Of a stretch of 36,921 nucleotides of DNA, positions 13,294 through 35,879 are shown piece by piece (the stretch's first letter is position 1; each line of letters begins with the position of its first letter). This DNA is from Acidobacteriota bacterium (lineage in GTDB: Bacteria; Acidobacteriota; Blastocatellia; Pyrinomonadales; Pyrinomonadaceae). The notes under the pieces were generated by a model. It was given only the letters and a program-made list of their open reading frames with translations, searched no databases and was not told where the DNA came from. The translations under genes were made by a program, and so were the position numbers. Location: assembly GCA_013698055.1 (NCBI GenBank), contig JACCVS010000755.1:1-36921 (forward strand), read 5' to 3'.

Positions 13294-15177
13294 ATGTGTG
13301 GAATCGCAGGAATAGTTAATCGGAATGGCAGGGCGGTGGATGCAGATGTGCTTGCACGCATGTGCGATGCGATCTGCCATCGTGGCCCTGATGGGGAAGG
13401 ACGCTATCTTAATGATACGGTCGGATTGACGATGCGACGGCTCGCCATTATTGACGTTGAGGGTGGGCAACAGCCGATTCACAACGCAGACCGGACAGCC
13501 TGGATTGTCTTCAACGGCGAAATCTATAACTACCGTGAGTTGCGCGAGAGCCTGGAAAAGCTCGGACATGCTTTTTATACCAACTGCGATACCGAAGTCA
13601 TCATTCATGCCTATGATCAGTATGGCGCGGAGTGCCCCAAGTATCTGCGTGGGATGTTTGCCTTCGCTATCTGGGACGAGCGGACGCAGGAACTCTTTTT
13701 AGCTCGCGACCGCGTCGGCAAGAAACCCTTGCTCTACTCACTGGTCAACAATCAGCTTATCTTCGGTTCTGAGTTCAGCGCGCTTCTCCAACACCCTGAT
13801 ATCAGCCGCGACATCGCGCCGGAAGCGATTCATTACTATCTCTCTTTTATGTGCGTGCCCGCGCCGCTCACGGCTTATCGCGCTATCAGAAAACTTGAGC
13901 CAGGACACTCTTTGCGCTTCACGAGCGCGGGCGAGATCAAGATCGAGCGATACTGGGAGCTGGAGTTTTCACCGAAGGTCAAGCTGAGCGAAGAAGAAGC
14001 GGGCGAGCGCGTTGTGGAACTTCTGCGCGATGCGGTGCGCGTGCGCTTGATGTCAGAAGTTCCACTTGGAGCCTTTCTCTCGGGCGGGGTTGATTCCTCG
14101 GCGATTGTCGCCTTGATGAGTGAAGCGAGCAGCGAACCGATCAAGACTTTTTCCATCGGTTTTGAAGAACAGGACTTCAGCGAACTTCACCACGCACGTC
14201 GCGTCGCAGAACATGTTGGGTCTGACCATCACGAGTTCATCGTGCGGCCTGACGCGATGGAAGTGCTGCCCACACTTGTCGAGCATTATGGCGAGCCGTA
14301 TGCCGATTCGTCCGCCATTCCGACATACTACGTTTCGCGCGAGACGCGGCGTCATGTGACTGTGGCCTTGAACGGTGACGGCGGTGACGAGTGCTTCGCA
14401 GGTTATGAGCGTTATGCCGCAATGCGACTGGCCGAGCGCTATCGCAAACTGCCCGGCCTGATGCGTGAAGGCGTTATCAAGCAGGCCGTTAATTGGATTC
14501 CTTCATCTGAGTTGCGTCGCAGTCGCGTCCGCAGCGTAAAACGTTTCCTTCAGGCAGCCTCTCTTTCGCCCGTCGAGCGTTACCTGCGCTGGGTAAGCGT
14601 ACTGGATCGGGCGGCCAAGGACGAACTTTATACCGATGCGTTTCGCCAGGAAATGGCAGCACACGATCCGGCCATTTGGCTCTCGCCCTGGTTCGCTCAA
14701 GCTAACGGGGCGGGTGTGGTGGACGCAAGCCTCCTGACGGACACGATGACGTATCTCCCGAATGATCTGCTGGTCAAGGTTGATATTGCGAGCATGGCTG
14801 TCTCGCTCGAAGCGCGTTCGCCATTTCTGGATCATCATGTCATGGAGTTTGCAGCCAGTTTGCCGGAGAAGTTCAAGTTGCGCGGGTTAACAACCAAGTA
14901 TATCTTGAAGCGTGTCCTCAAAAAACTGGTCCCGGTTGAGAATCTCAACCGCCCCAAGATGGGCTTCGGAGTTCCCATCGGCCACTGGTTCCGCAACCAC
15001 ATGAAGGCGTTTGTGGGAGAAACGCTATTGAGCGAGAGAGCGCTCAATCGCGGCTTCTTCAAGAGCGAGGAAGTCAAGCGCATGTTTGAGCTACACACGA
15101 GCGGGACGCGCGACTACGCACACCAGCTCTGGACGCTGTTGATGCTGGAATTGTGGTTCGAGAGATTCATTGATTAA
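13294..15177 (+). CDS. asnB: Asparagine synthase (glutamine-hydrolysing) family amidotransferase
   Basis: Has N-terminal MCGIAG (Cys2 nucleophile of Ntn class II glutamine amidotransferases) and the LSGGVDSS PP-loop. Length is typical at 627 aa. Confidence 0.92.
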   Translation: MCGIAGIVNRNGRAVDADVLARMCDAICHRGPDGEGRYLNDTVGLTMRRLAIIDVEGGQQPIHNADRTAWIVFNGEIYNYRELRESLEKLGHAFYTNCDTEVIIHAYDQYGAECPKYLRGMFAFAIWDERTQELFLARDRVGKKPLLYSLVNNQLIFGSEFSALLQHPDISRDIAPEAIHYYLSFMCVPAPLTAYRAIRKLEPGHSLRFTSAGEIKIERYWELEFSPKVKLSEEEAGERVVELLRDAVRVRLMSEVPLGAFLSGGVDSSAIVALMSEASSEPIKTFSIGFEEQDFSELHHARRVAEHVGSDHHEFIVRPDAMEVLPTLVEHYGEPYADSSAIPTYYVSRETRRHVTVALNGDGGDECFAGYERYAAMRLAERYRKLPGLMREGVIKQAVNWIPSSELRRSRVRSVKRFLQAASLSPVERYLRWVSVLDRAAKDELYTDAFRQEMAAHDPAIWLSPWFAQANGAGVVDASLLTDTMTYLPNDLLVKVDIASMAVSLEARSPFLDHHVMEFAASLPEKFKLRGLTTKYILKRVLKKLVPVENLNRPKMGFGVPIGHWFRNHMKAFVGETLLSERALNRGFFKSEEVKRMFELHTSGTRDYAHQLWTLLMLELWFERFID

Positions 15178-15241: not shown

Positions 15242-16006
15242 ATGAAAGGCGTTGTCCTGGCTGGTGGATTGGGAACGCGGCTACTGCCTTTGACGGCGGT
15301 AACGAACAAGCATTTGTTGCCGATCTATAATCAGCCGATGATTTATTATCCCATTCAGACGATGGTGAATGCCGGGATCAAAGACATTATGATTGTCACG
15401 GGCGGCAACTCGGCAGGCGATTTTTTGAAGCTGCTCAAGAACGGCAAACCGTTCGGCCTCAAACATCTTAATTACACCTATCAGGAAGGCGAGGGGGGAA
15501 TCGCCGATGCTTTATCGCTGGTCGAAGACTTTGCCGATAATGAGCCGATCTGCGTCATTCTTGGCGATAACATCATTGAAGGAAATATCTGCAAGGCGGT
15601 GCGCGATTACCACCAACAGGGCGGCGGGGCCAAGATCATGCTGAAGAAGGTTCCCGACCCGCAACGCTTCGGCGTGCCTCAACTGGATGGTCGCCGTGTC
15701 CTGCGCATCGAAGAGAAGCCCTCCCACCCCAAATCCGATTATGCCGTCATCGGCATCTACATGTATGATTCGGAAGTCTTCAATATCATCCGCACACTCG
15801 TGCCATCAGGGCGGGGCGAGCTGGAGATTACAGACGTCAACAATGCATATATCGAGCGAGGCGAGATAACCTGGGAGGAGTTGGATGGATGGTGGACTGA
15901 CGCGGGGACCTTCGAGAGTCTGCTTCATGCGTCAAATCTAGCAGCCGAGACGGGGGCAAACAAACTGGAGAATAAAGATGCAGCCCAAGCTGGACATGTC
16001 CACTGA
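15242..16006 (+). CDS. Sugar-1-phosphate nucleotidyltransferase (short RmlA-like glucose-1-phosphate thymidylyltransferase)
   Basis: Has MKGVVLAGGLGTRLLPLT (GxGTRxxPxT) and ILGDNI. A GGAGG Shine-Dalgarno sequence lies 7-11 nt upstream. Confidence 0.88.
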   Translation: MKGVVLAGGLGTRLLPLTAVTNKHLLPIYNQPMIYYPIQTMVNAGIKDIMIVTGGNSAGDFLKLLKNGKPFGLKHLNYTYQEGEGGIADALSLVEDFADNEPICVILGDNIIEGNICKAVRDYHQQGGGAKIMLKKVPDPQRFGVPQLDGRRVLRIEEKPSHPKSDYAVIGIYMYDSEVFNIIRTLVPSGRGELEITDVNNAYIERGEITWEELDGWWTDAGTFESLLHASNLAAETGANKLENKDAAQAGHVH

Positions 16007-16484
16007 AATCTTTAAGCGCGGCATGATTCAAGGTGTGGCCGTACGCGATTTGCGAAAACATGTGGATGATCGTGGATGGCTCTCCGAGTTGTTTCGCCAC
16101 GATGACCTGGCGGAAGAGTTTTATCCACAGATGGGCTATATCTCACAATCACAGCCGCACGTACAGCGCGGGCCGCACGAACATGCTGAGCAGGCCGATT
16201 TTTTCTGTTTTATAGGCCCATCGAACTTTAAAATGCGCCTGTGGGATAACAGGGCTGACTCTGAGACTTATCGCTCCGTGATGACTCTCTTCGTCGGCGA
16301 AGATAATCCGAAATCGATTCTTGTGCCTAAAGGTGTCGTCCATGCTTACCGCAATATTGGGCATGGCGTCGGCATCGTCATTAACTTTCCCAATCGCCTC
16401 TTCATGGGCACCAACCGGAGCGAAGAGATTGATGAGATCAGGCATGAAGACGATCCCGAGACGATTTTCAAGATTGATGAGTAG
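15978..16484 (+). CDS. RmlC-like cupin (dTDP-4-dehydrorhamnose 3,5-epimerase family)
   Basis: Has DDRGWLSELFR and PKGVVHAYRN cupin motifs and is 168 aa long. A GGAG sits 8 nt upstream of the ATG. The gene overlaps the upstream gene by 29 nt. Confidence 0.7.
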   Translation: MQPKLDMSTEIFKRGMIQGVAVRDLRKHVDDRGWLSELFRHDDLAEEFYPQMGYISQSQPHVQRGPHEHAEQADFFCFIGPSNFKMRLWDNRADSETYRSVMTLFVGEDNPKSILVPKGVVHAYRNIGHGVGIVINFPNRLFMGTNRSEEIDEIRHEDDPETIFKIDE

Positions 16485-18355: not shown

Positions 18356-19321
18356 ATGCGAATATTGATTACAGGGGGGGCGGGCTTTATCGGATCGCAT
18401 CTCTCAGACTCGTACATTGATCGCGGCGACGAAGTTTTTGTGATAGATGACCTCTCGACCGGAAGTTTTAGGAACATCGCCCATCTGAAGGAACACCCTC
18501 GTTTTCACTACACCATTGATTCCGTTAACAACCAGCCGGTACTGGCCGAACTCGTTGATCAGTGCGACGTGATCTTTCATCTAGCGGCGGCTGTCGGCGT
18601 CAAGCTTATCGTCGAAAGCCCGGTCAGGACAATCGAGACCAATGTGCACGGCACGGAAGTGGTTCTCTCCCTGGCGAGTAAGAAGAAAAAGAAAGTCCTG
18701 GTCGCTTCGACTTCGGAAGTTTACGGCTTGAGCGCCGAAGTGCCTTTCCGCGAGGACGGCAATCTCGTGATGGGCGCGACGACCAAGGGGCGTTGGAGCT
18801 ACGCCTGCTCGAAAGCTATTGACGAGTTTCTCGCTTTAGCCTACTGGAGAGAGAAGAAATTGCCGACGGTCGTCGTCCGGCTCTTCAACACAGTGGGGCC
18901 GCGGCAGACAGGGCAGTATGGGATGGTCATCCCGACTTTCGTTAAGCAGGCTCTGTCGGGGCAACAGATAACCGTTTACGGTGACGGTAAGCAGTCGCGC
19001 TGTTTTGGATATGTCGGCGATGTGGTCGGCGCGCTTGTCGAACTGATGGATCACGAGGCAGCGGTCGGCCAGGTCTATAATATCGGCTCGAACGAAGAGG
19101 TGACGATTCTTGAGCTTGCAAAGCGCGTCAAGGAGCTGACGAAATCGGATTCGGAGATTACGTTTGTGCCGTATGACGAGGCATACGAAGAAGGTTTCGA
19201 GGATATGCCGCGACGTGTCCCGGATATCTCAAAGATAAATTCACTTGTCGGATTTAGCCCCAGCATGTCGCTTGATGGTATTCTAGGGAGCGTCATCAGT
19301 TTTCATGCCGAGTTGCCATGA
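18356..19321 (+). CDS. SDR-family NAD-dependent sugar epimerase/dehydratase (UXS / ArnA-decarboxylase-like)
   Basis: Has ITGGAGFIGSHL (GxxGxxG), STSEVYG, YACSK (YxxxK) and RLFNTVGPRQ. Confidence 0.9.
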   Translation: MRILITGGAGFIGSHLSDSYIDRGDEVFVIDDLSTGSFRNIAHLKEHPRFHYTIDSVNNQPVLAELVDQCDVIFHLAAAVGVKLIVESPVRTIETNVHGTEVVLSLASKKKKKVLVASTSEVYGLSAEVPFREDGNLVMGATTKGRWSYACSKAIDEFLALAYWREKKLPTVVVRLFNTVGPRQTGQYGMVIPTFVKQALSGQQITVYGDGKQSRCFGYVGDVVGALVELMDHEAAVGQVYNIGSNEEVTILELAKRVKELTKSDSEITFVPYDEAYEEGFEDMPRRVPDISKINSLVGFSPSMSLDGILGSVISFHAELP

Positions 19322-19890: not shown

Positions 19891-21726
19891 ATGCCTTTTG
19901 AGCTGACACAACTTATTCCGGTAGCATCTTCGCTGGCGCTGGCGCTTATTCTGACGCCAATTATACGAAGACTGGCACGCTGGCGGGGCATTATCGCTCG
20001 TCCGAACACTGATCGTTGGCACAAGAAGCCGACCGCGATGCTCGGCGGTATCGCAATTTTTTTATCGGTCACTTCCGTCATTCTCATCTATCTGCTCTTA
20101 ATACCGCCCGGGGCGGACGAAATTCAGCATCATAGTCGCCCTTATCTCTGGGTAGTGCTGGGAGCCAGCTCCTTCCTTTTCGCGGTTGGTTTGGCTGATG
20201 ATCTGTTTCAAGCCAAGCCCTATCAGAAATTGATCGGGCAGGTGATGGGGGCGGCGTTCGTTATCTACTATGGCTTGACTCTGCCGTGGACAGGGTCTGC
20301 GACAATTAACATGGTGATTACGATTTTCTGGTTAATCGGCATCACCAACGCCGTCAACCTGCTCGACAACATGGACGGGTTGGCCGCGGGGATTGCGGCG
20401 ATCTCGTCCATCTTTTTGGCGGTCAATTTCCTGATCGGTTCCCAGCCGACGGAAGCCTTAGTGCTAGCCGTCTTCGCCGCCGCTCTGATCGGTTTTCTCG
20501 TTTACAACTCGAACCCGGCCTCAATTTTCATGGGCGACTGCGGTTCAATGTTCATCGGGTTCTTCCTGGCGAGTGCGTCGTTGGTGAGCATGGCCGGGGG
20601 GCGCTCGCGCAGCTTTCTGCCCGTCCTCGCCGTGCCGATTATGGTTCTCCTCATTCCGATCTTCGACACGACGTTCGTCACGATTCTGAGAAAGCTTTCG
20701 GGCCGGGCCGCATCGCAAGGCGGGCGTGATCACACGTCGCACAGGCTGGTGGCGCTCGGCATGTCCGAGCGTCGAGCCGTCTGGATGCTCTACGCGTTTG
20801 CGGCGCTTTCGGGTCTGCTGGCAATGCTGGTGCGCGAGATGAATCTCGACGTCAGTCTCGCCGTCATCATCGGGTTCACGATACTGCTCACGCTGCTGGG
20901 GGTTTACCTGGCGGGCGTTAAGGTTTACGACGAAGAAGAAGTCAAGGCTGCGCGTGACAAGCCCTTGTTCGCTTTCCTGATTGACCTCTCTTACAAGCGC
21001 CGCGTCTTCGAGGTCTTGCTAGACCTCGTCCTGATCGTTCTCGCCTATTACGGAGCTTATCTCCTCCGTTTCGGCTCGATAGAAGAGAGCAGGACATGGT
21101 CAATATTCCTGCGCACGCTGCCCGTGCTGCTGTTTGTCAAGATGGGGGCGTTCCTCGTGATGGGCGTCTACCGTGGCATCTGGCGCTACACGAGCATTGA
21201 TGATCTGGTGGTCTTTGCCAAGGCCGTAGTCGTCGGGTCAATCGCGAGCGTGATGGCGATTCTCTTTGCCTTCCGCTTTGAAGGCGTCTCGCGCACGGTC
21301 TTCTTTCTCGACGCGATGATAATGTTGATGCTGCTAGCCGGAAGCCGGATGGCCTTTCGCCTGTTCCGGCAGATTCTCCCGGCGCAGATGCAGCGCAAGG
21401 GTTGCCGCGTGTTGATTTACGGCGCGGGTGACGCGGGCGAGCTGTTATTGCGTGAGCTACTTAACAACCGTGAGCTACGATATGCGCCCATCGGTTTTGT
21501 GGACGACGACCCGAACAAGAAGGGCAAAGTCATTCACGGCCTGCGTGTCTTTGGCGGCAACGGTATGCTCCGCAGCGTGTGCCGGGAGCACCGCGTTGAG
21601 GAAGTGCTCATCTCCAGCTCACGCTTCTCTGATGAGCACATAGCACAGATTATGAGCGATTGCGAGGCCGAGCAGATTTCTCTCAAGCAGATGCGTATCA
21701 GAATCGAGAATATCAGTGGCCTCTGA
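19891..21726 (+). CDS. Polyprenyl-phosphate N-acetylhexosamine-1-phosphate transferase (WecA/MraY family) fused to a CapD/WbaP-type 4-TM plus Rossmann-like (CoA_binding_3-like) module
   Basis: N-terminal half: LADDL (aa 101-105), NAVNLLDNMDGLAAG (aa 153-167, nt 20347-20391), SIFMGDCGS, IFDTTFVTILR and GGRDHTSHRL. C-terminal half (about aa 362-611): LLRFG, GVYRGIWRYTSIDDL, then RVLIYGAGDAGELLLREL ... IGFVDDDPNKKGKVIHGLRVFG (nt 21406 onward). Confidence 0.85.
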   Translation: MPFELTQLIPVASSLALALILTPIIRRLARWRGIIARPNTDRWHKKPTAMLGGIAIFLSVTSVILIYLLLIPPGADEIQHHSRPYLWVVLGASSFLFAVGLADDLFQAKPYQKLIGQVMGAAFVIYYGLTLPWTGSATINMVITIFWLIGITNAVNLLDNMDGLAAGIAAISSIFLAVNFLIGSQPTEALVLAVFAAALIGFLVYNSNPASIFMGDCGSMFIGFFLASASLVSMAGGRSRSFLPVLAVPIMVLLIPIFDTTFVTILRKLSGRAASQGGRDHTSHRLVALGMSERRAVWMLYAFAALSGLLAMLVREMNLDVSLAVIIGFTILLTLLGVYLAGVKVYDEEEVKAARDKPLFAFLIDLSYKRRVFEVLLDLVLIVLAYYGAYLLRFGSIEESRTWSIFLRTLPVLLFVKMGAFLVMGVYRGIWRYTSIDDLVVFAKAVVVGSIASVMAILFAFRFEGVSRTVFFLDAMIMLMLLAGSRMAFRLFRQILPAQMQRKGCRVLIYGAGDAGELLLRELLNNRELRYAPIGFVDDDPNKKGKVIHGLRVFGGNGMLRSVCREHRVEEVLISSSRFSDEHIAQIMSDCEAEQISLKQMRIRIENISGL

Positions 21727-21729
21727 TAA

Positions 21730-23148
21730 GTGACGAGCAAAGACGTTTTTAACTTGTCACTCGTCATCTGTCACAGTCTTAAAGTGTCTCAATCAACATC
21801 CGATCAACTGAAGCTGATAGATGTGCGCAAGCCGCTCTTGCGCGCGTTGCTCGTCGTGCCGGTCTTGCTGGCGCTGCTCTTTTCCTGGTACGCGACCCGC
21901 TGGTACATGGGCAACTTCGTGGCGGAGTTTGCGCCGAGGATGCAGGAGGGGCAGCTCGATGCCGCACTGGCTGCGATGCGTCTTGCGCCCGACGACCCCT
22001 GGACACATGGGGCTGTGGCAAGCCTGAAGAAGGGGAGCCTGTTGCCGGAGGAACTGGCCGACGCCGTGCATCACTATGAAGAGGCCGTCAGACTCTCGCC
22101 CAACGACTATCGTTTCTGGCTGGAATTAGGTCGGGCGCGAGAACAGTCGGGTGACTCGGCAGGCGGTGAGAAGGCCTTGCGGCGTGCCGTCGAACTTGCC
22201 CCGTCTTATGCTTACCCTCGCTGGCATCTGGGGAATCTGCTGCTCCGCGCGGGGCGCGGCGAAGAGGCCTTCGCAGAGTTGCGGCGCGCCTCTGATGCGG
22301 CCTCGACGCTGCGACCACAGATGTTCAACGTCGCATGGTCGCTGTACGGCCAGAATATTGATGAGATAAAAAGGGCGGTCGGCGATTCCGCCGCGACGCG
22401 CGCCGAGTTTGCGATTTATCTGGTGGGGCGGGCGCGCCCGGACGATGCTCTGGCTCTCTGGTCTAGCTTACAGCCTGCCGAGAAGAGGGCGCAGCGCGAG
22501 GCAGGCGAAGCCATTATGAAGAGCCTGCTAGCGCAGAAGCGTTATCGCGCAGCCGTCAGCATTCTAAGCGACCTTAGTACTGAAGGGGCTTCGCCCAAAG
22601 CCGCGCAATTCATCAACGGCGGTTTTGAAGAAGACATTAACACCTCCGGCACTAACGTTTTTAGCTGGCAGATCAAGTCTGATCCGCAGGCGCAGATAGT
22701 CATTGACGGGAGTACCAGGCACAGCGGCGCGCGCAGTCTGCGGATTCTTTTCAAGGTCTCCTCTTCGCTTTCTTTCAACAACATTGCACAGCTTGTTTCG
22801 GTCGAGCCTTCCGCCCAGTACCGTTTTGAATGCTACGTTCGGGCGGAAGATTTGAAGAGCGCGGGAACGCCCGCGATAGAGATCGTAGACGCCACGGATG
22901 GCACGACGGTACTGGCCGTCCTGCCGCCAATTCCCGTCGGCACGTATGACTGGCAGCCGGTCGCAATAAATTTCAAGACGCCGCCGCAAACGGAGGCGGT
23001 CACGGTGCGTATCGTCCGCTCGACGTGCAGCGCGGACGCTGTCTGCCCAATTTTTGGCATGGTCTGGTATGACGACTTCAATCTCCAACATGTCGGCGGG
23101 GCAGCCAGCCCACGGGACAGTCGCGGCGCAACCAAAGCCCGCACCTGA
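21730..23148 (+). CDS. Membrane-anchored TPR-repeat protein with C-terminal carbohydrate-binding-module-like (CBM4_9/jelly-roll) domain
   Basis: Has one N-terminal hydrophobic helix (LLRALLVVPVLLALLF), TPR-like repeats (YEEAVRLSPNDYRFWLELGRA ... ALRRAVELAPSYAYPRWHLGNLL), then FINGGFEE ... W ... HSGARSLRI ... YRFECYVRAEDL. The start is uncertain (GTG 21730 or GTG 21823). Confidence 0.65.
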   Translation: MTSKDVFNLSLVICHSLKVSQSTSDQLKLIDVRKPLLRALLVVPVLLALLFSWYATRWYMGNFVAEFAPRMQEGQLDAALAAMRLAPDDPWTHGAVASLKKGSLLPEELADAVHHYEEAVRLSPNDYRFWLELGRAREQSGDSAGGEKALRRAVELAPSYAYPRWHLGNLLLRAGRGEEAFAELRRASDAASTLRPQMFNVAWSLYGQNIDEIKRAVGDSAATRAEFAIYLVGRARPDDALALWSSLQPAEKRAQREAGEAIMKSLLAQKRYRAAVSILSDLSTEGASPKAAQFINGGFEEDINTSGTNVFSWQIKSDPQAQIVIDGSTRHSGARSLRILFKVSSSLSFNNIAQLVSVEPSAQYRFECYVRAEDLKSAGTPAIEIVDATDGTTVLAVLPPIPVGTYDWQPVAINFKTPPQTEAVTVRIVRSTCSADAVCPIFGMVWYDDFNLQHVGGAASPRDSRGATKART

Positions 23149-24601
23149 TCGCTCCGCGCTGGTCGAACCGGTGCGGACGCTGGCAAGCCGCTTCATCATC
23201 GTGATGCTCTGCATCGCGATAATTCTCTCTGCCCTCCTTTACGGCACGGTTCACTACTGGTCGCTAGCCGTTTTCGAGATCGGCGCGTGCGCCATCATTC
23301 TCCTGTGGGTCGTAGACGCATGGCGCAGCCGCACGCTGCGCCTCAGCCGCAGCCCTTTACAATGGCCGCTCATCGGCCTGCTCTTGATTGGCCTCGTGCA
23401 GCTTCTTCCACTGCGCAGCCCTGCGGACGCCGGCGCGCTCTCGTCCCCACCCGTCAGCAGTCTTTCGCTTGATCCGTACTCGACACGCCTCGCGCTCGTA
23501 CAAATTCTCGCGCTTCTCATCTATTTTGCCGCCGCACTGGTCTTCATTGACAGCCCGAAGCGTTTGCGCCTAATAGTGCGAATCGTCACCATCTTCGGTT
23601 TCCTGCTGGCGCTCCTCGGCCTCATTCAGTCTTTCACCAGCCCGGATAAAATCTACTGGCTGAAAGAGCTGCCGCAGAGCATTCCGTTCGGCCCCTTCTA
23701 CAACCGCCATCACTTCGCGGCCTACATGGAACTCGCCCTGGCTCTGCCGCTCGGCCTGCTCCTTTCAGGCGCAATCGAACCCGACAAACGCCCGCTCTAT
23801 ATCTTCGCGGTCGTCTTGATGGGGATCGCCCTGATCATGACAGGTTCGCGCGGCGCAATGATTAGCTTCGTGGCCGAAGCGGCCTTTCTGGTAATCTTCG
23901 CCAGCTTCGTGCCAGGAGAAGGGGCCAGGCAAAGGGGGGAGAAAAGAGGACGCATCGGCGCAACGTTCAAGCGCGTGGCGCTGGCGCTGGCGCTCGTGCT
24001 CGCGCTCTTTGGTGGGGCGGTGTTGTTCGGGGGCGGGGCGGCTTTGAGCAGGTTGGTCGGGACGGTCAATTCCGATGATCCGACGACGGGGCGCGCGCAT
24101 TTCTGGGGCGCGACGCTCGATATCATACGCGCCCACCCGCTCACGGGCAGCGGGCTTGGCTCTTACGGGCTGGCTTACACACAGTATGATTCGCGCAACG
24201 GATTACTTCGTCTCGAGCAGGCGCACAACGATTACTTGCAGTTGATGTCGGACGCCGGAATTATCGGTGTCGGGCTGGGGGTCTTCTTCATCGTCGCGCT
24301 TTTTCGGACGGGCTTCGCGCGCCGGGAGACGGAAGACCCCTTCAGGCGCGGTGTGGCCACGGGCGCACTCGCCGGGTGCTTTGCCGTACTCGTTCACAGC
24401 TTCTTTGACTTTACGCTGCACACGACGGCGAACGCACTGCTGTTTCTAATGCTGGCGACGTTTGCGACCATCAATGGGCAGGTTGAACAGACCTCCGGGT
24501 CCCGCCGTCATCATCGCCGTCGCCGCCGCAGGTCAATAAAGCAGCCCGACGTTCCTGACACTTACGAGGCCACAAGGGTCCCACAGTCACACAGCCGGTA
24601 G
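23054..24601 (+). CDS. O-antigen ligase/polymerase family (Wzy_C domain) polytopic membrane protein
   Basis: Has at least 10 hydrophobic segments and the signature LEQAHNDYLQLMSDAGIIGVGL. The C-terminal tail is polybasic (RRHHRRRRRR). The start is uncertain: ATG 23054 or 23090 overlap the upstream gene, while GTG 23171 and ATG 23204 do not. Confidence 0.8.
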   Translation: MAWSGMTTSISNMSAGQPAHGTVAAQPKPAPDRSALVEPVRTLASRFIIVMLCIAIILSALLYGTVHYWSLAVFEIGACAIILLWVVDAWRSRTLRLSRSPLQWPLIGLLLIGLVQLLPLRSPADAGALSSPPVSSLSLDPYSTRLALVQILALLIYFAAALVFIDSPKRLRLIVRIVTIFGFLLALLGLIQSFTSPDKIYWLKELPQSIPFGPFYNRHHFAAYMELALALPLGLLLSGAIEPDKRPLYIFAVVLMGIALIMTGSRGAMISFVAEAAFLVIFASFVPGEGARQRGEKRGRIGATFKRVALALALVLALFGGAVLFGGGAALSRLVGTVNSDDPTTGRAHFWGATLDIIRAHPLTGSGLGSYGLAYTQYDSRNGLLRLEQAHNDYLQLMSDAGIIGVGLGVFFIVALFRTGFARRETEDPFRRGVATGALAGCFAVLVHSFFDFTLHTTANALLFLMLATFATINGQVEQTSGSRRHHRRRRRRSIKQPDVPDTYEATRVPQSHSR

Positions 24602-24613
24602 AATTGTTCGCCA

Positions 24614-25783
24614 ATGAAGAAGAGTTTCTTACAAGTCGTGGTCTGTCCTCTGTGCCGGGGAACGCTCCGCTGCGAGAGTTTCCAGGAGACTGAGGGAGGA
24701 GAGATCGAGAGCGGTCTCATCACCTGCGGGTGCGGAGCGAGCTATCCGCTCATCGGAGGTATCCCACGCCTGCTCCCGCCCGCGCTGCAAAGTATGCTAT
24801 GGGAAATGCATCCCGAGTTTTTCCGCGCTTACGGGGCGCGACTGCCCGCAGAGTTGCTGCCGGATGAAGAGAAGCACGCCGACAAGTCGGACAGTGATGG
24901 CGCGACGAAAGCTCAGCGCGACACGGCGCGCAGCTTCGGCTATGAGTGGCAGGCATTTTCCGAGATGCTCCCCGATTACGAATCGAACTTTCGCTGGTAC
25001 TTCGAGCGCTTCGCGCCCGGCTCCTTTGCGGGCAAGCGGATTCTCGACGCCGGTTGTGGCACGGGACGCCACACCTTTCATATGGCACGCAGCGGGGCGC
25101 ACGAAGTTGTGGCGATGGATTTCAGCCAGGCCATAGAAGTCGCCGCGCGCAACAACAGCGAGAATCAGAACACGCATTTCGTCCAAGCGGACATTTATCA
25201 CCCGCCGTTTCCGCCGGACAGTTTCGATTTCGTTTACAGCCTCGGCGTGCTGCATCACTTGCCCGACCCGGAAAAGGGATTCCGCACGTTGCTGCCGCTA
25301 CTGCGCGCTGGCGGTTACATGAACATTTATCTCTACTGGAATCTGGAAAGCGAAGCGGCGTGGCGGCGCGCGGCGCTCTCGGTTATTACGCAAACGCGAC
25401 GCATCACAACGCGCCTACCCCACACCCTGCTCAAGAAGGTGTCATGGTTGATCGCCGCCGCCTTTCAAGGAGCATTCGTCCTTCCGGCACGCGCGCTCGA
25501 CAAGTTCAAGGTGACGCGCCCGCTCGCCGACCGGGTACCTCTCGGACATTATCGCAAGTATTCGTTCCGCGTGCTTTACACGGATCAGTTCGACCGCTTC
25601 TCTGCGCCGATTGAGAATCGCTATAGCCGCGCGGATGTTGCAAAGTGGTTTGAGAAGGAAGGGATTGAGGATACTGTAATTCTCGGCGGTGCCGGGTGGC
25701 GCGCATCCGGCAAGCGTGCAATCGGAATTCAAAGCGATGAAAACGCTGCCGCCGCGCCGGTAAAGGCTGCCAAACTTGATTGA
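24614..25783 (+). CDS. Trm112-like zinc-ribbon domain fused to class I SAM-dependent methyltransferase
   Basis: Has VVCPLCRGTL ... CGCGASYPLIGGIPRLLP (Trm112-type ribbon), then ILDAGCGTGRH (motif I), FDFVYSLGVLHHL and LRAGGYMNI. Confidence 0.8.
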   Translation: MKKSFLQVVVCPLCRGTLRCESFQETEGGEIESGLITCGCGASYPLIGGIPRLLPPALQSMLWEMHPEFFRAYGARLPAELLPDEEKHADKSDSDGATKAQRDTARSFGYEWQAFSEMLPDYESNFRWYFERFAPGSFAGKRILDAGCGTGRHTFHMARSGAHEVVAMDFSQAIEVAARNNSENQNTHFVQADIYHPPFPPDSFDFVYSLGVLHHLPDPEKGFRTLLPLLRAGGYMNIYLYWNLESEAAWRRAALSVITQTRRITTRLPHTLLKKVSWLIAAAFQGAFVLPARALDKFKVTRPLADRVPLGHYRKYSFRVLYTDQFDRFSAPIENRYSRADVAKWFEKEGIEDTVILGGAGWRASGKRAIGIQSDENAAAAPVKAAKLD

Positions 25784-27275
25784 AACGGAAACACCTGCCG
25801 CGCTCTCGCCAGAGGGGACAAGGCCTGTGGGTCACGAAACCGAGGCGGCCACTTCCCCGCGCCTTTCGCGCCGCCTTGCTTCGGTGGTCTGGATGACTGG
25901 CCTCGGTTCGGTGGCGACGATGGCTGTAAGCACGCTTGCTAGTGTCGCCGTCGCGCGCAACGGCGGCCCCGCTGGTTATGCCACTTTTATCACCGCTAAT
26001 ATGTTGATTTTCGTTACGGCGGTGCTGTCCTCGTGCGGTTTGCCCGTTGCCTTAGCTAAATATGTCGCCCGCGAGGAAGAAAGGGGGCATCACGAAGCGC
26101 TCAGACAATCATGCACAACAACATTCATTTTAATGCTCCTGTCCGCGCTTGTTGCTGGCGTTGTGGTGAGTCTCAATTTATCACGCCTGGAACAGTATCT
26201 TAATGTTTCAATCGGAGACGGCTTTGCTCTTGCTTTTCCGATCATCCTGCTGTGCGCGGCGACCTCTGATTGCGTTCAGGGAATTTACTCCGGCCTGCTA
26301 CGCCCGCGCTCTATGATTGCTATTACGGTGGCCGGGCCACTGGCAATGATATTTTACATATTGGTTCGCCGGGGTGGCGCGCCCTTGCCTCTGTGGGGAG
26401 CGGTGGCCGCATCTTATATCTGCTCCGGTGTGGTAGCGGGCTACAAGTCGTGGCGCGATAAACTGCTAGGCGCGCCCGCATTAATCAGCGAAATTCGACC
26501 GATCTTAAAAGATATTGCGCCGGCAGCCACCTTCACTTTCTTTACAATCTTTTCTACCTGGAGCGACCGCTGGATCGTCGGAACACAGTTGGGAGCGATT
26601 GCGATGGGATCATATACTGCTGCTGTCTTGGTGATTCAGGCAGTATTGCGTGTGCCCACTCATATCGGATACCTGCTTGTGCCCGCATCCACTAGAATGG
26701 CTTTGGGGGGAGTAGAAAGGATCAGAAAATTCAACAATATTATGATTGGCATTTTCGGTATTTTCTCAGCATTAATGATGGTCGTGATAATGCTTGCGCC
26801 AACGACCATTGTGAGATTGCTCTTTGGCCCAGGGTTTTCGTTGGCCGCGCCAACCCTGTTGATTATGGCGTTGGGTCTGATGGCCTCCGCTGTCAGTATT
26901 CCTTTCATCTCGGCGCTGACCGGGTCAACGAAAAATCGCCTGGTGATCTGGTTACTTGCACTGACGCTGCTGCCCCGCATCCTGCTCCTTCTATTTTTCA
27001 CCCGGCGCTGGAGTCTCCTGGGCACTGCTTTAGCCACGGTGTTGGCCGACTATCTGCTGGCCTTATGTTGCCTCCTTTTAGCCCACAAAATCGGTATAGG
27101 CTTCCCTCTGTTTCCTTTGTTGCGATCTTACCTGATTGGCGCGCTCATTCTCATTGCAGGCCTCGGAGCGCTATTGCTCAATGTTCCTCAATTGGTTGTG
27201 GTTGCTCTGGCTATCGCCGCTTTCACGCCAGCTTTATGGCAAGCGGCGCGATCCATATATGAGTCAAGCGATTGA
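25776..27275 (+). CDS. wzx: Wzx-like oligosaccharide flippase (MOP superfamily polysaccharide biosynthesis protein)
   Basis: Has about 12-14 hydrophobic segments over 499 aa, with size and topology typical of Wzx, and sits next to Wzy_C and glycosyltransferase genes. The TTG start at 25776 is uncertain (alternative GTG 25827). Confidence 0.65.
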   Translation: MIETETPAALSPEGTRPVGHETEAATSPRLSRRLASVVWMTGLGSVATMAVSTLASVAVARNGGPAGYATFITANMLIFVTAVLSSCGLPVALAKYVAREEERGHHEALRQSCTTTFILMLLSALVAGVVVSLNLSRLEQYLNVSIGDGFALAFPIILLCAATSDCVQGIYSGLLRPRSMIAITVAGPLAMIFYILVRRGGAPLPLWGAVAASYICSGVVAGYKSWRDKLLGAPALISEIRPILKDIAPAATFTFFTIFSTWSDRWIVGTQLGAIAMGSYTAAVLVIQAVLRVPTHIGYLLVPASTRMALGGVERIRKFNNIMIGIFGIFSALMMVVIMLAPTTIVRLLFGPGFSLAAPTLLIMALGLMASAVSIPFISALTGSTKNRLVIWLLALTLLPRILLLLFFTRRWSLLGTALATVLADYLLALCCLLLAHKIGIGFPLFPLLRSYLIGALILIAGLGALLLNVPQLVVVALAIAAFTPALWQAARSIYESSD

Positions 27276-34487: not shown

Positions 34488-35879
34488 TCAGGCTGCCACC
34501 TCCGATCTCCTCTTTGATGACCAGAGAGAGTAGGCTTGCACCGCCCCCTCGGCTCCGAGGATGATGAGGAGCATCCAGAAGACATAGCGCATTCTGTAGA
34601 GCGCGCCGATATTAATGACGACGAGCCCGAGGGCGATGACGCCGACCCCGGCGGCCAGCGCCAGCAGCCACGCCGACCAACAACGCCGACGTTGCCATAA
34701 ACCTAAAATGGCCAGTAGTTCGACGACGTATATCACAAAGGTTTCCAGCCCGCAGAGTAATCTTCCCGTCAGCCCCGTCTGAGGTCCGGCGACAAACCAC
34801 ATGTTCGGGAAGGGTGAGAAGAAACCGATGGCAGCGGCCCGCGGCAGGTAGCGCAGAATGTCTCCCATATTGGAGAACTCTATCTCCTTATCAATGTTCG
34901 AGCCGGCGTTAGGATAGCTCGTAATAAAACCGTGTCGCAATTGATTAATCCGGGCGGGCAAACTCGAGCCCGGCGAAATCGCCTGACCTTCGGCGACAGC
35001 AATCGTTTGGTCTGGCTGAACAGTAACCGGAGAGGCTCCATCTGTGTTTGACGTGGCGACGGAACTTTGACTGAGGAGATCATTACGGGCCTCAACGATT
35101 GCCCACACTCGCGGAAGGCTAATGATGATTGCCAGTAACAAAGCGGCGCTGATCAAATTCCCGACTAGAAACCGCTTTTCGTAGAATTGCCTGGCTATCA
35201 ATAGACAGATGGCCAGCAGCGTCATCGTTAGCACGACTTCCCACATCTCTCTCCTTAAAAACCATAGCAGCCATGCCACGGCTCCGCCCGCAACTCCGGA
35301 GGCCAGGCCCTTCGGCCATGAATAATCTCTCGTCAGCCAGCAGGCGTAGATCAACACCAAGCCCAACACGGCAGCGATAAAGAGAGGGTCTCTAAAGAGC
35401 TGTGTCGTGTGCAACAGAAATGACGGCCACAGTCCGACCATTCCGGCGGCGAGCAGGCCGACCCGCCGGTCGAACACTTCGCAGCCCAATTTGAAAACGA
35501 GAGACAAAATCAAGAGGTAATAAAGCAGGTTCAATGGCTCGGCGCTTAAAATGTTGTAACCCAGCCACGGCCCCAGGACGGCGAAAGAAAGTGAATATAT
35601 TTTGAGGTGGAATGGATTAACAAGAAAGTTAGAAGATGCCGAGAGCCAAGCCATTAACCCCTGTTGAAAGAGCGTGTCAATGAGCGAGATCACCTCGCCA
35701 CGATAAGCTATGCAATCAGCCGCGAATAAAAGTCCAAACCCGTTGCCGTCGAAGACACCTGGAAGAAGCGCGAATCGTCCAATCAAATAAATGACCACTG
35801 TTAACGTGACATGCAGGGCAGCAGCCGCCATCAGCAGATGCACCGGCTTTACTCGTCGGCCAAGTTCTTGGCTCATCAT
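34488..35879 (-). CDS. Polytopic inner-membrane protein, paralog of 11929-13281 (candidate GT-C-type glycosyltransferase/polymerase)
   Basis: Has about 11-13 hydrophobic segments. It shares WPSFLLHTTQLFRDPLFI, FSPFPNMW and INIGALYRMRYV with the plus-strand paralog. It has a Ser/Thr/Pro-rich central loop. This is the only intact minus-strand gene in the locus. Confidence 0.5.
   Translation of the reverse strand: MMSQELGRRVKPVHLLMAAAALHVTLTVVIYLIGRFALLPGVFDGNGFGLLFAADCIAYRGEVISLIDTLFQQGLMAWLSASSNFLVNPFHLKIYSLSFAVLGPWLGYNILSAEPLNLLYYLLILSLVFKLGCEVFDRRVGLLAAGMVGLWPSFLLHTTQLFRDPLFIAAVLGLVLIYACWLTRDYSWPKGLASGVAGGAVAWLLWFLRREMWEVVLTMTLLAICLLIARQFYEKRFLVGNLISAALLLAIIISLPRVWAIVEARNDLLSQSSVATSNTDGASPVTVQPDQTIAVAEGQAISPGSSLPARINQLRHGFITSYPNAGSNIDKEIEFSNMGDILRYLPRAAAIGFFSPFPNMWFVAGPQTGLTGRLLCGLETFVIYVVELLAILGLWQRRRCWSAWLLALAAGVGVIALGLVVINIGALYRMRYVFWMLLIILGAEGAVQAYSLWSSKRRSEVAA

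Follow-up and report, generated by a model that had tools for sequence, protein, structure and literature searches.

Introduction

Initiating phosphoglycosyl transferases (PGTs) commit scarce undecaprenyl phosphate to one glycan pathway. WecA, a polytopic enzyme of this kind, has its N-terminus outside and its C-terminus inside. An accessory module of four transmembrane (TM) helices and a soluble Rossmann-like domain has earlier been reported from large monotopic PGTs and from PglF-like dehydratases. In WbaP the homologous module serves as the interface of the dimer, and its soluble part, classed among the domains of unknown function (DUF), is stabilised in isolation by the uridine mono-, di- and triphosphates (UMP, UDP and UTP); also UMP has a half-maximal inhibitory concentration (IC50) of 4.1 uM, and the authors propose a feedback control of undecaprenyl-phosphate use (PMC10942596). 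The occurrence of the same module in PglF-like dehydratases, which are functionally unrelated, was called puzzling (PMC10942596). PglF truncated to lack the module is still active (PMC10942596, PMC6441080), and therefore the module takes no part in the chemistry of its native host. In EpsZ of M. xanthus, dimerisation of the enzyme appears to be the means by which a response regulator acts, in the region of the module (PMC12802240).

In this work we analysed a gene at 19891..21726 on the forward strand of a 36,921-nucleotide stretch of Acidobacteriota DNA (contig JACCVS010000755.1 of assembly GCA_013698055.1; the whole stretch is called the window), in which such a module is joined to a transferase of the MraY/WecA superfamily, that is, to a polytopic PGT as its third unrelated scaffold. 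With a probability of about 0.6, we read the 611-aa product as the fused initiating transferase of a Wzx/Wzy cluster, equipped with a CapD-type module that serves nucleotide-binding regulation and/or oligomerisation. No description of the PF00953 plus PF13727 architecture was found in the full-text literature, whose coverage was incomplete, so that this is absence of evidence only; the fusion is apparently undescribed.

Domain architecture of the fused protein

The open reading frame (ORF) starts at the first possible start codon past the upstream stop and runs to a true stop codon at 21724-21726, which is counted in the coordinates of the gene. It encodes a PNPT (polyprenyl-phosphate N-acetylhexosamine-1-phosphate transferase) domain, a linker, a four-helix TM bundle and a Rossmann-like domain. 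A Pfam scan located PF00953 (Glycos_transf_4) at aa 87-233 (E 2.3e-32, 112.6 bits against a cut-off of 27) and PF13727 (CoA_binding_3) at aa 424-594 (E 1.5e-14, 54.8 bits against a cut-off of 25). The two-part architecture that an earlier note had proposed from the sequence of the window is thereby borne out, and the doubt raised there, that the C-terminal 250 aa might hold no PF13727-like region, is answered by the same match. The ORF and all the motifs quoted in that note were found at the residues claimed, namely LADDL (101-105), NAVNLLDNMDGLAAG (153-167), IFDTTFVTILR (257-267), LLRFG (391-395), YRGIWRYTSIDDL (427-439), RVLIYGAGDAGELLLREL (506-523) and IGFVDDDPNKKGKVIHGLRVFG (534-555). No match to Bac_transf (PF02397), to Polysacc_synt_2 (PF02719) or to any other short-chain dehydrogenase/reductase (SDR) family was obtained for the 611-aa protein in the Pfam scan, which agrees with the earlier statement that it has neither the dehydratase nor the PGT catalytic domain. 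By hydropathy the protein is divided into 11 TM helices (aa 1-341), four more (aa 374-488) and a soluble tail of 123 aa. The structural model used here was predicted with AlphaFold2 (AF2) from 72 diverse sequences (mean predicted local distance difference test score, pLDDT, 91.6; predicted TM-score, pTM, 0.88; no segment below 50); it replaced a poor model from 30 close orthologues (pLDDT 56).

The PNPT half (aa 1-341, 19891..20913; this and all other features of the gene are on the forward strand) has the MraY/WecA/GPT fold. Its 11 TM helices are predicted to run from an N-terminus on the outside to a C-terminus in the cytoplasm, as judged from hydropathy, the distribution of K and R residues and the AF2 model, and such a WecA-type layout would make the active-site loops cytoplasmic, together with the linker and the tail. 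phmmer aligns the conserved residues with the WDD, NAVNLTDGLDG, FMGDVGS and HHH motifs of MraY. The DD motif D103-D104 (20197..20202) aligns to WDD of Aquifex MraY (4j72), the NxxNxxDxxD motif N153-A-V-N156-L-L-D159-N-M-D162 (20347..20376) to NAVNLTDGLDG, and the His motif H281-T-S-H284 (20731..20742), which has D280 before it, to HHH of MraY and HIHH of WecA. We take these aligned residues to be the Mg-binding and catalytic residues, as known for MraY, WecA and GPT. Across 72 diverse members of the family (32-68% identity to the window protein), D103, N153, N156, D159, N160, G163, N206, D259, D280, H281 and H284 are invariant, while D104, D162 and D216 are at least 90% conserved. The N-terminal half matches MraY 5jnq with an E of 4e-13 in phmmer. 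Foldseek gives it target-normalised TM-scores (TMt) of 0.73-0.79 against MraY (for 5jnq, E 1.7e-9 and 0.78) and of 0.62-0.70 against human DPAGT1. By profile, motifs and fold alike the protein is a member of the PNPT superfamily, and its motifs give this half the look of an intact, competent catalyst.

On comparing the protein with the PNPTs WecA, WbpL and TagO, we find the same fold, the same 11 TM helices in the N-out/C-in sense, the same cytoplasmic-loop motifs (DD, NxxNxxDxxD, FMGDxGS and DHxxH) and the same place in a Wzx/Wzy cluster; it differs from them in being about 250 aa longer and in belonging to a clade of its own that is made up of fused proteins only. The WecA equivalog model TIGR02380 scored 94.3 bits and its cut-off of 326 was missed. 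UDP-N-acetylglucosamine (UDP-GlcNAc) as the donor sugar is therefore a default guess. Public pipelines already list both Pfam domains for such proteins and name them 'UDP-GlcNAc:undecaprenyl-phosphate GlcNAc-1-phosphate transferase', 'glycosyl transferase' or 'hypothetical protein'; since the TIGR02380 cut-off was missed, the first of these, a JGI name, is to be read as a label at the level of the superfamily.

The PNPT half is followed by a K/R-rich cytoplasmic linker (aa 342-373, 20914..21009) with two short helices at 348-355 and 358-364 (hydropathy and AF2), and then by the four-helix TM bundle (aa 374-488, 21010..21354), for which the model has helices at 366-394, 401-423, 436-461 and 468-495 and which aligns with the 4-TM region of CapD-type proteins. 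Outside the PNPT half, the 72 members have a single invariant residue, D378 in the first bundle helix (21022..21024); it is also Asp in 4 of 4 CapD-type references and not in E. coli WcaJ. The cytoplasmic loop between bundle helices 2 and 3 has the sequence Y427-R-G-I-W431-R-Y (21169..21189), where Y427 is 97% and W431 91% conserved. The rest is the cytoplasmic Rossmann-like domain (aa 489-611, 21355..21723), which is the soluble part of PF13727 and corresponds to the DUF of WbaP and PglF. Its five modelled strands, which alternate with helices, lie at 505-510, 531-537, 551-553, 571-574 and 597-600, with a helix at 514-525. Strand 1 is followed by the glycine-rich loop G511-A-G-D-A-G516 (21421..21438; G511 97%, A512 94%, G513 90%, G516 93%), and strand 2 ends in D538-D-D, within GFVDDDP (21502..21510; D538 94%, D539 86%); R486 and G550 are also at least 90% conserved in the diverse set. 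The features by which a Rossmann-like sensor is recognised, a beta-alpha-beta core, a glycine loop after strand 1 and an acidic residue in strand 2, are thus all present, and the nucleotide binding that the earlier note held possible becomes plausible from the conserved GAGxxG and DDD motifs taken together with the fold.

Against the PDB, the only match of the soluble tail at the sequence level was 3nkl (phmmer E 6e-6), a 141-residue fragment from Vibrio fischeri deposited as UDP-D-quinovosamine 4-dehydrogenase, which represents the accessory domain of a WbpM-type protein. The same entry was matched by the soluble domain in Foldseek (TMt 0.73, root mean square deviation (rmsd) 1.5-3.4 A), where the 4-TM plus soluble region also aligned with S. 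enterica WbaP 8t53 over 250 columns (probability 1.0, rmsd 12 A). Next after 3nkl and WbaP came Rex repressors, with an E of 3e-3 by fold and of 0.09 by sequence; NCBIfam also gave a weak match of this kind. A dimerisation beta-hairpin of the WbaP type is absent from the AF2 model, which ends with strand 597-600.

Proposed role of the module

We propose that the PNPT half would move a sugar-1-phosphate, most likely N-acetylhexosamine-1-phosphate from a UDP-sugar, to undecaprenyl phosphate with release of UMP, and that the retained module would bind a nucleotide and/or oligomerise, tuning the transferase at the point where the scarce lipid carrier is committed. As PNPTs also release UMP, the feedback logic of WbaP applies to them as well, and for this reason the module is taken as a device of regulation or oligomerisation. 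Its ligand could be a uridine nucleotide, by analogy with WbaP, or it could be nicotinamide adenine dinucleotide (NAD(H)) or an adenine nucleotide, in view of the canonical motif and the resemblance to Rex. The Rex and KTN/RCK sensors are a functional analogy here, with no membership implied: in these too a GxGxxG loop and an acidic residue of strand 2 serve to report a nucleotide pool to an effector, but the matches to them are weak and the fused protein has no DNA-binding or channel part.

Several points weigh against this assignment. WbaP, which is the sole experimental precedent, is a more distant relative of the module. Its beta-hairpin is missing from the model, and so any dimerisation of the fused protein must work differently; EpsZ also has no such hairpin (PMC12802240), and hence the hairpin is not universal in large PGTs. 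The GxGxxG loop with its acidic residue, and the matches to Rex, are as compatible with NAD(H) or adenine nucleotides as with uridine nucleotides, and UDP-GlcNAc is a default guess for the donor, given 94 bits against the 326 asked for by the WecA equivalog. With regard to the origin of the protein, the relatives that still have a dehydratase domain after the module (see below) are rare and nested among the two-domain forms, which would fit a loss of the dehydratase or its later regain alike; one long relative, P0262, suggests that secondary fusions do occur; and the PNPTs of the split gene pairs L033 and L068 are not close relatives of the fused clade.

The strongest rival is that the module acts as a docking platform, recruiting non-covalently the SDR encoded upstream, which is UXS/LegB-like, into a membrane metabolon that passes a modified, possibly labile UDP-sugar to the PNPT. 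We consider this unlikely, though there is much in the neighbourhood that speaks for it. The SDR gene (18356..19321, +) encodes a soluble extended SDR of 321 aa from the UXS/ArnA/4,6-dehydratase clade, which scores 194 bits with UDP-glucuronate decarboxylase (UXS) and 178 bits with a LegB-type 4,6-dehydratase model (below cut-off); a small SnoaL-like ORF lies between it and the fused gene. A homologue is present directly upstream in 12 of 28 other fused loci (L002, L003, L006, L007, L008, L011, L012, L013, L018, L021, L022 and L025) as against 1 of 52 stand-alone PNPT loci (Fisher p about 5e-6); on including the window this becomes 13 of 29 (Fisher p = 2e-6). The fused loci with this conserved partner span Acidobacteriota, Omnitrophota, Desulfobacterota and others, and the SDR is more conserved (54-85% identity) than the fused protein. 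Also, the native setting of the module is one with an SDR dehydratase covalently behind it, a Polysacc_synt_2 gene is absent from the flanks of all the fused loci, and initiating PGTs can take the 4-keto product of a dehydratase directly, as does WreU, a small monotopic PGT of R. etli (PMC11626204). Yet the adjacency may just mean that the SDR makes the donor sugar without any contact. Moreover, the SDR is from a different subfamily than Polysacc_synt_2 (59 bits on the profile used here), and it is missing from 16 of the 29 fused loci within the fetched flanks.

It is quite improbable that the module is instead a functionless leftover of a lost dehydratase, at most an inert membrane tail. Such a remnant would be in line with the protein stopping exactly at the linker between DUF and dehydratase, with the activity of PglF devoid of its module and with four members of the family (P0124, P0183, P0249 and L017) that end after the 4-TM bundle. 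The conservation of the module is difficult to reconcile with it. Close orthologues have a mean pairwise identity of 0.79 in the PNPT half, 0.82 in the linker and 0.75 in both the bundle and the soluble domain; in the diverse set the values for these four parts are 0.39, 0.20, 0.32 and 0.29, respectively, with the bundle and the core of the domain nearly free of gaps. This near-equal conservation without indels extends through 72 members down to 32% identity, with D378 invariant and with the glycine loop and D538 at least 90% conserved, and the module has been kept both by more than 130 clusters at 50% identity and under no fewer than 7 phylum labels. Judged from these alignments, the module is under strong constraint and is conserved nearly like the catalytic half.

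Origin of the module

The earlier note was right in holding the module to be common to the CapD/WbpM/PglF dehydratases and the WbaP-type PGTs, a view with which both PMC10942596 and our Pfam and profile results agree. It went on to propose that the module had been grafted from the other superfamily of initiating transferases, and this was not supported. A profile of the module (aa 362-611), built from the diverse alignment, scored 195 and 190 bits on 650-aa proteins encoded beside PNPT genes in Ampullimonas (L033) and in a Desulfobulbaceae metagenome-assembled genome (MAG; L068), 123 bits on a WbgZ-type protein of Shigella sonnei (L083) and 117 bits on a Rhizobium pRL9 dehydratase (L081), these being the CapD-type group with PF13727 and PF02719. 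The corresponding values were 43 bits for a large PGT of Bacillota (L042, a Bac_transf protein) and 30 bits for E. coli WcaJ, the two sequences that made up the large-PGT reference set. In blastp with the module, WcaJ appeared at E 7.9; S. enterica WbaP was not found by sequence at E<=1, while 3nkl was. A tblastn search of the module against 72,556 plasmids gave 212 records at E<=1e-3. All the annotated plasmid matches listed, in a ranking sampled up to E 10, are named 'nucleoside-diphosphate sugar epimerase/dehydratase' or 'polysaccharide biosynthesis protein'; they cover 97% of the module at an identity of about 32%, and there is no sugar transferase among them, though plasmids may under-represent large PGTs.

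The alignment agrees with the scores. The fused and the CapD-type proteins share D378, G-x-YRGxWRYxS, PRxV, GAGxAG and GFxDDDP, whereas WcaJ has VAGDLAAG and GVYHDP at such sites. The end of the window protein (…LKQMRIRIENISGL) is the exact point from which the CapD-type proteins continue into the LPDL…GR…IR-x-LEIEDLL linker to the dehydratase domain. Taken together, the sequence comparisons indicate that the module is of the CapD/WbpM/PglF dehydratase type and not of the WbaP type. Since the scores, the plasmid matches, the motifs and 3nkl favour the CapD type, the protein is a PNPT that carries the leading part of a dehydratase, with one catalytic domain, and not a hybrid of the two PGT superfamilies.

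A hybrid of the two initiating-transferase superfamilies, with a WbaP-type accessory module on a PNPT, is consequently very doubtful. It draws on the NCBIfam models of large PGTs, of which TIGR03025 (87 bits) and TIGR03023 (81 bits) match aa 376-598, on the 250 columns aligned with WbaP 8t53 and on the homology of the module in both host families (PMC10942596). The NCBIfam matches are, however, biased to PGT models, since NCBIfam has no model of the CapD N-terminus. They also cover the non-catalytic N-terminal half of the large PGTs only: TIGR03025 is matched at positions 1-218 of 445 (aa 376-598), and TIGR03025, TIGR03023 and TIGR03022 together at positions 1-224 of about 450 (aa 375-599). 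Direct scoring, motifs, plasmid matches, the E of 7.9 for WcaJ and 3nkl all favour the CapD type over such a graft, and in the three-domain relatives it is a dehydratase, never Bac_transf, that follows the module.

Compared with CapD, WbpM, PglF, WbgZ and WreV, the C-terminal 250 aa of the fused protein are thus closest to their N-terminal module (26-32% identity over the whole module), but the SDR dehydratase domain is absent and the module is C-terminal, on another enzyme. With WbaP, WcaJ, CpsE and EpsZ it has in common an accessory module of the same kind on an initiating transferase that releases UMP. Their catalytic domain is monotopic and unrelated, their module is N-terminal, the affinity in sequence is low and, for WbaP, the beta-hairpin has no counterpart in the fused-protein model. 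The fused protein therefore belongs to neither the CapD/WbpM/PglF family nor the large-PGT family, as the catalytic domain that defines each of them is absent.

Distribution of the family

Both Pfam domains were present in all the 120 best homologues (71-88% identity, 590-654 aa), which come from JGI, ENA, NCBI and Logan assemblies and have Pyrinomonadaceae, Blastocatellia or Acidobacteria as their labels; from these, the organism of the window would belong to Pyrinomonadaceae or be closely related to it. A set of 1.84 billion representatives was also searched exhaustively. Its best 150 matches reach down to E 3e-98 and 34% identity, and most of them, more than 130 clusters at 50% identity, align with the query from end to end. 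Among 72 diverse representatives sampled, PF00953 was found in 72 and both domains in 70. In a genome scan with one genome per species, where the matches were verified on six-frame ORFs with profiles built for each half, at least 28 genome loci with a single-ORF fusion were obtained under at least 7 phylum-level labels. These are Blastocatellia/Pyrinomonadaceae, other Acidobacteriota, Terriglobales, Desulfobacterales/Desulfatitalea, 'delta proteobacterium', Omnitrophota, Gaiellaceae/Actinomycetota, Salinivenus and Fibrobacterales, along with MAGs labelled Heliomicrobium and Bifidobacteriaceae; one extra fused representative is from a SAR324 MAG. MAG labels may be wrong, and the distribution is a lower bound. 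A profile search with alignment A3 returned only the same Pyrinomonadaceae clade. The architecture is not peculiar to the window but that of a large, old, multi-phylum family, of which the earlier note was not aware.

That a sequencing or assembly frameshift merged two neighbouring genes, the other doubt raised in the earlier note, is of negligible probability: true split pairs of a PNPT and a CapD-type gene do exist, and tblastn displayed two of them (L033 and L068) as if full-length, but here the ORF is continuous, several stops occur in each of the two other reading frames over the domain junction, the linker is 82% conserved in close orthologues, the confident AF2 model extends across the junction between PNPT and module, and frameshift or chance is excluded by the recurrence of the same single-ORF architecture in the homologues, the representatives and the 28 genome loci, with hundreds of full-length orthologues assembled independently.

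Three loci that had at first the appearance of fusions were rejected. L033 and L068, listed as full-length fusions in the tblastn table, have two genes each. The 616-aa PNPT fusion of L048 is an artefact of stop-to-stop reading, the PNPT being in another frame with a separate SDR gene after it.

In a neighbour-joining (NJ) tree of the PNPT domains only, based on BLOSUM distances as were all our trees, 50 of 51 fused proteins form one clade, inside which there is none of the 53 stand-alone PNPTs. The only fused protein outside is L036 (Fibrobacterales), which is the most divergent fusion. As the clade is pure, the fusion would be essentially one old event that founded a PNPT subfamily of its own.

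Some members differ in length. P0124, P0183 and P0249 (475-495 aa) and L017 (5779-7431, 551 aa) seem to stop after the 4-TM bundle, without the Rossmann-like domain; these may be real short forms or truncated gene calls. P0222 (888 aa) has a polysaccharide deacetylase and DUF3473 C-terminal to the module, and P0203 and P0207 (about 930 aa) have about 330 unannotated residues there, P0207 being the protein of the SAR324 MAG, with a weak TPR_12 match. By these domain matches, the module is in some members placed between the PNPT and various second domains. The tails of P0203 and P0207 were considered as counterparts of the tetratricopeptide repeat (TPR) protein encoded downstream in the window and this was rejected, since there is no blastp match and the only Pfam match is the weak TPR_12 in P0207 alone.

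Intermediates and the probable formation of the fusion

Three of the best 150 representatives have the three-domain architecture PF00953 plus PF13727 plus PF02719, namely P0135 (975 aa), P0145 (955 aa) and P0153 (936 aa). Such a polypeptide unites an initiating transferase with the enzyme that makes a 4-keto sugar. The spacing between DUF and SDR in these proteins is 45-49 residues, which is also that of stand-alone CapD-type proteins. Two ENA samples encode an identical P0145 (L084/L085 7001-9868), in a cluster with Wzx, a methyltransferase, a DegT aminotransferase, a GFO/hexapeptide acetyltransferase protein, two GT4s and a Wzy-TPR protein. The three proteins are similar to each other, and a crude NJ tree places them within a clade of four that is nested among two-domain proteins. 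A still longer protein, P0262 (1110 aa; a cluster of 3 from Logan, ENA and JGI), consists of the PNPT, the module, a second, partial CoA_binding_3 and a dehydratase, and by this order of domains it would seem to have arisen secondarily, when a two-domain protein was fused to the product of a CapD-type gene.

The unfused state is represented by L033, where a 357-aa PNPT gene ends 3 bp before a 649-aa gene for a 4TM-DUF-dehydratase protein, and by L068, which is alike. On Rhizobium johnstonii pRL9 (L081 4212-6917) and on the S. sonnei virulence plasmid (L083 2860-5384) a small monotopic PGT gene is directly followed by a 4TM-DUF-dehydratase gene, a pairing that is the monotopic counterpart of the one between PNPT and dehydratase. 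The gene order of an initiating PGT and then a membrane dehydratase is common and functionally meaningful, and with such an order the loss of one stop codon would be enough to make a three-domain protein. Most likely, then, a PNPT gene would have joined the dehydratase gene that commonly follows an initiating transferase, the 611-aa form being one without the dehydratase domain. We also considered an ancestral trio of SDR, PNPT and CapD-type genes and rejected it, as the SDR upstream of the L068 PNPT is only 23% identical to the window SDR.

Other features of the cluster

Downstream of the fused gene, and on the same strand, are genes for a TPR plus CBM_4_9 protein (21730-23148), a Wzy-type polymerase/ligase (23054-24601), a methyltransferase (24614-25783) and a Wzx-like flippase (25776-27275). 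Apart from Wzy and Wzx, the cluster holds many GT4/GT2 glycosyltransferases, methyltransferases, an RmlA-like nucleotidyltransferase, an AsnB-type amidotransferase, a FemAB-like protein and deacetylases, nearly all of them on the forward strand. The TPR and Wzy genes are syntenic with the fused gene only within Blastocatellia, and hence the suggestion of the earlier note that the module scaffolds the TPR, Wzy and Wzx proteins finds no comparative support. A scan for promoters and terminators around the fused gene gave promoter-like sites at chance level and terminator-like sites inside coding sequence.

In the ORF list, the gene for the TPR plus CBM_4_9 protein shares about 95 nt with the Wzy_C gene that follows it, and in an unrelated three-domain locus (L084 11314-13806, -) a single 830-aa protein is made of Wzy_C and TPR repeats. 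From these arrangements a Rosetta-stone link between the TPR protein and the polymerase/ligase is possible. Models associated with extracellular polysaccharide (EPS) loci of the XrtA/PEP-CTERM kind are matched below threshold: the amidotransferase (13294-15177) scores 687 bits on TIGR03108 against a cut-off of 817, there are weak matches to a PrsT-like TPR (21730-23148) and to PEP_O_lig_1 (23054-24601), and the module weakly matches TIGR03013. Going by these matches, the cluster may be related to exosortase-linked EPS loci.

Between about 20 and 26 kb, where the fused gene, TPR, Wzy and methyltransferase are found, the G+C content is 57-61%, compared with 49-53% over most of 26-33 kb and 50-52% immediately upstream, so the cluster is a mosaic in composition. 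Two further ORFs were recorded. The 168-aa ORF at 15978-16484 (+) overlaps the end of the RmlA-like gene, has weak dTDP_sugar_isom (RmlC-like cupin) and Polysacc_synt_C matches and no NCBIfam match, and its homologues are syntenic in Blastocatellia loci. The 463-aa ORF at 34488-35879 (-), among the few large ORFs of the reverse strand, has no Pfam match.

Significance

The finding is not one of surprising chemistry. It speaks for the module being a part of the priming step itself and not of the chemistry of one enzyme, and it offers natural 'Rosetta stone' evidence that a PNPT and a membrane dehydratase work together. With regard to annotation, fused proteins should not be named WecA. The module is C-terminal and removable, which makes a simple construct for the nucleotide-sensor hypothesis; and as it is not placed before a second catalytic domain, the fused family would be the simplest system in which its role could be proved. 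A wider reading, which we put forward only tentatively, is that the module is a portable 'governor' on three unrelated enzymes at the entrance to undecaprenyl-phosphate-linked glycans (monotopic PGTs, polytopic PGTs and UDP-HexNAc (N-acetylhexosamine) 4,6-dehydratases), and that in the fused family, where it is alone behind a PNPT, it would sense a nucleotide pool (UMP or NAD(H)) so as to throttle the use of the lipid carrier, or else dock the conserved upstream SDR so that a modified UDP-sugar is channelled to the transferase. If this is true, it would explain why unrelated enzymes share the module, which was found puzzling in PMC10942596.

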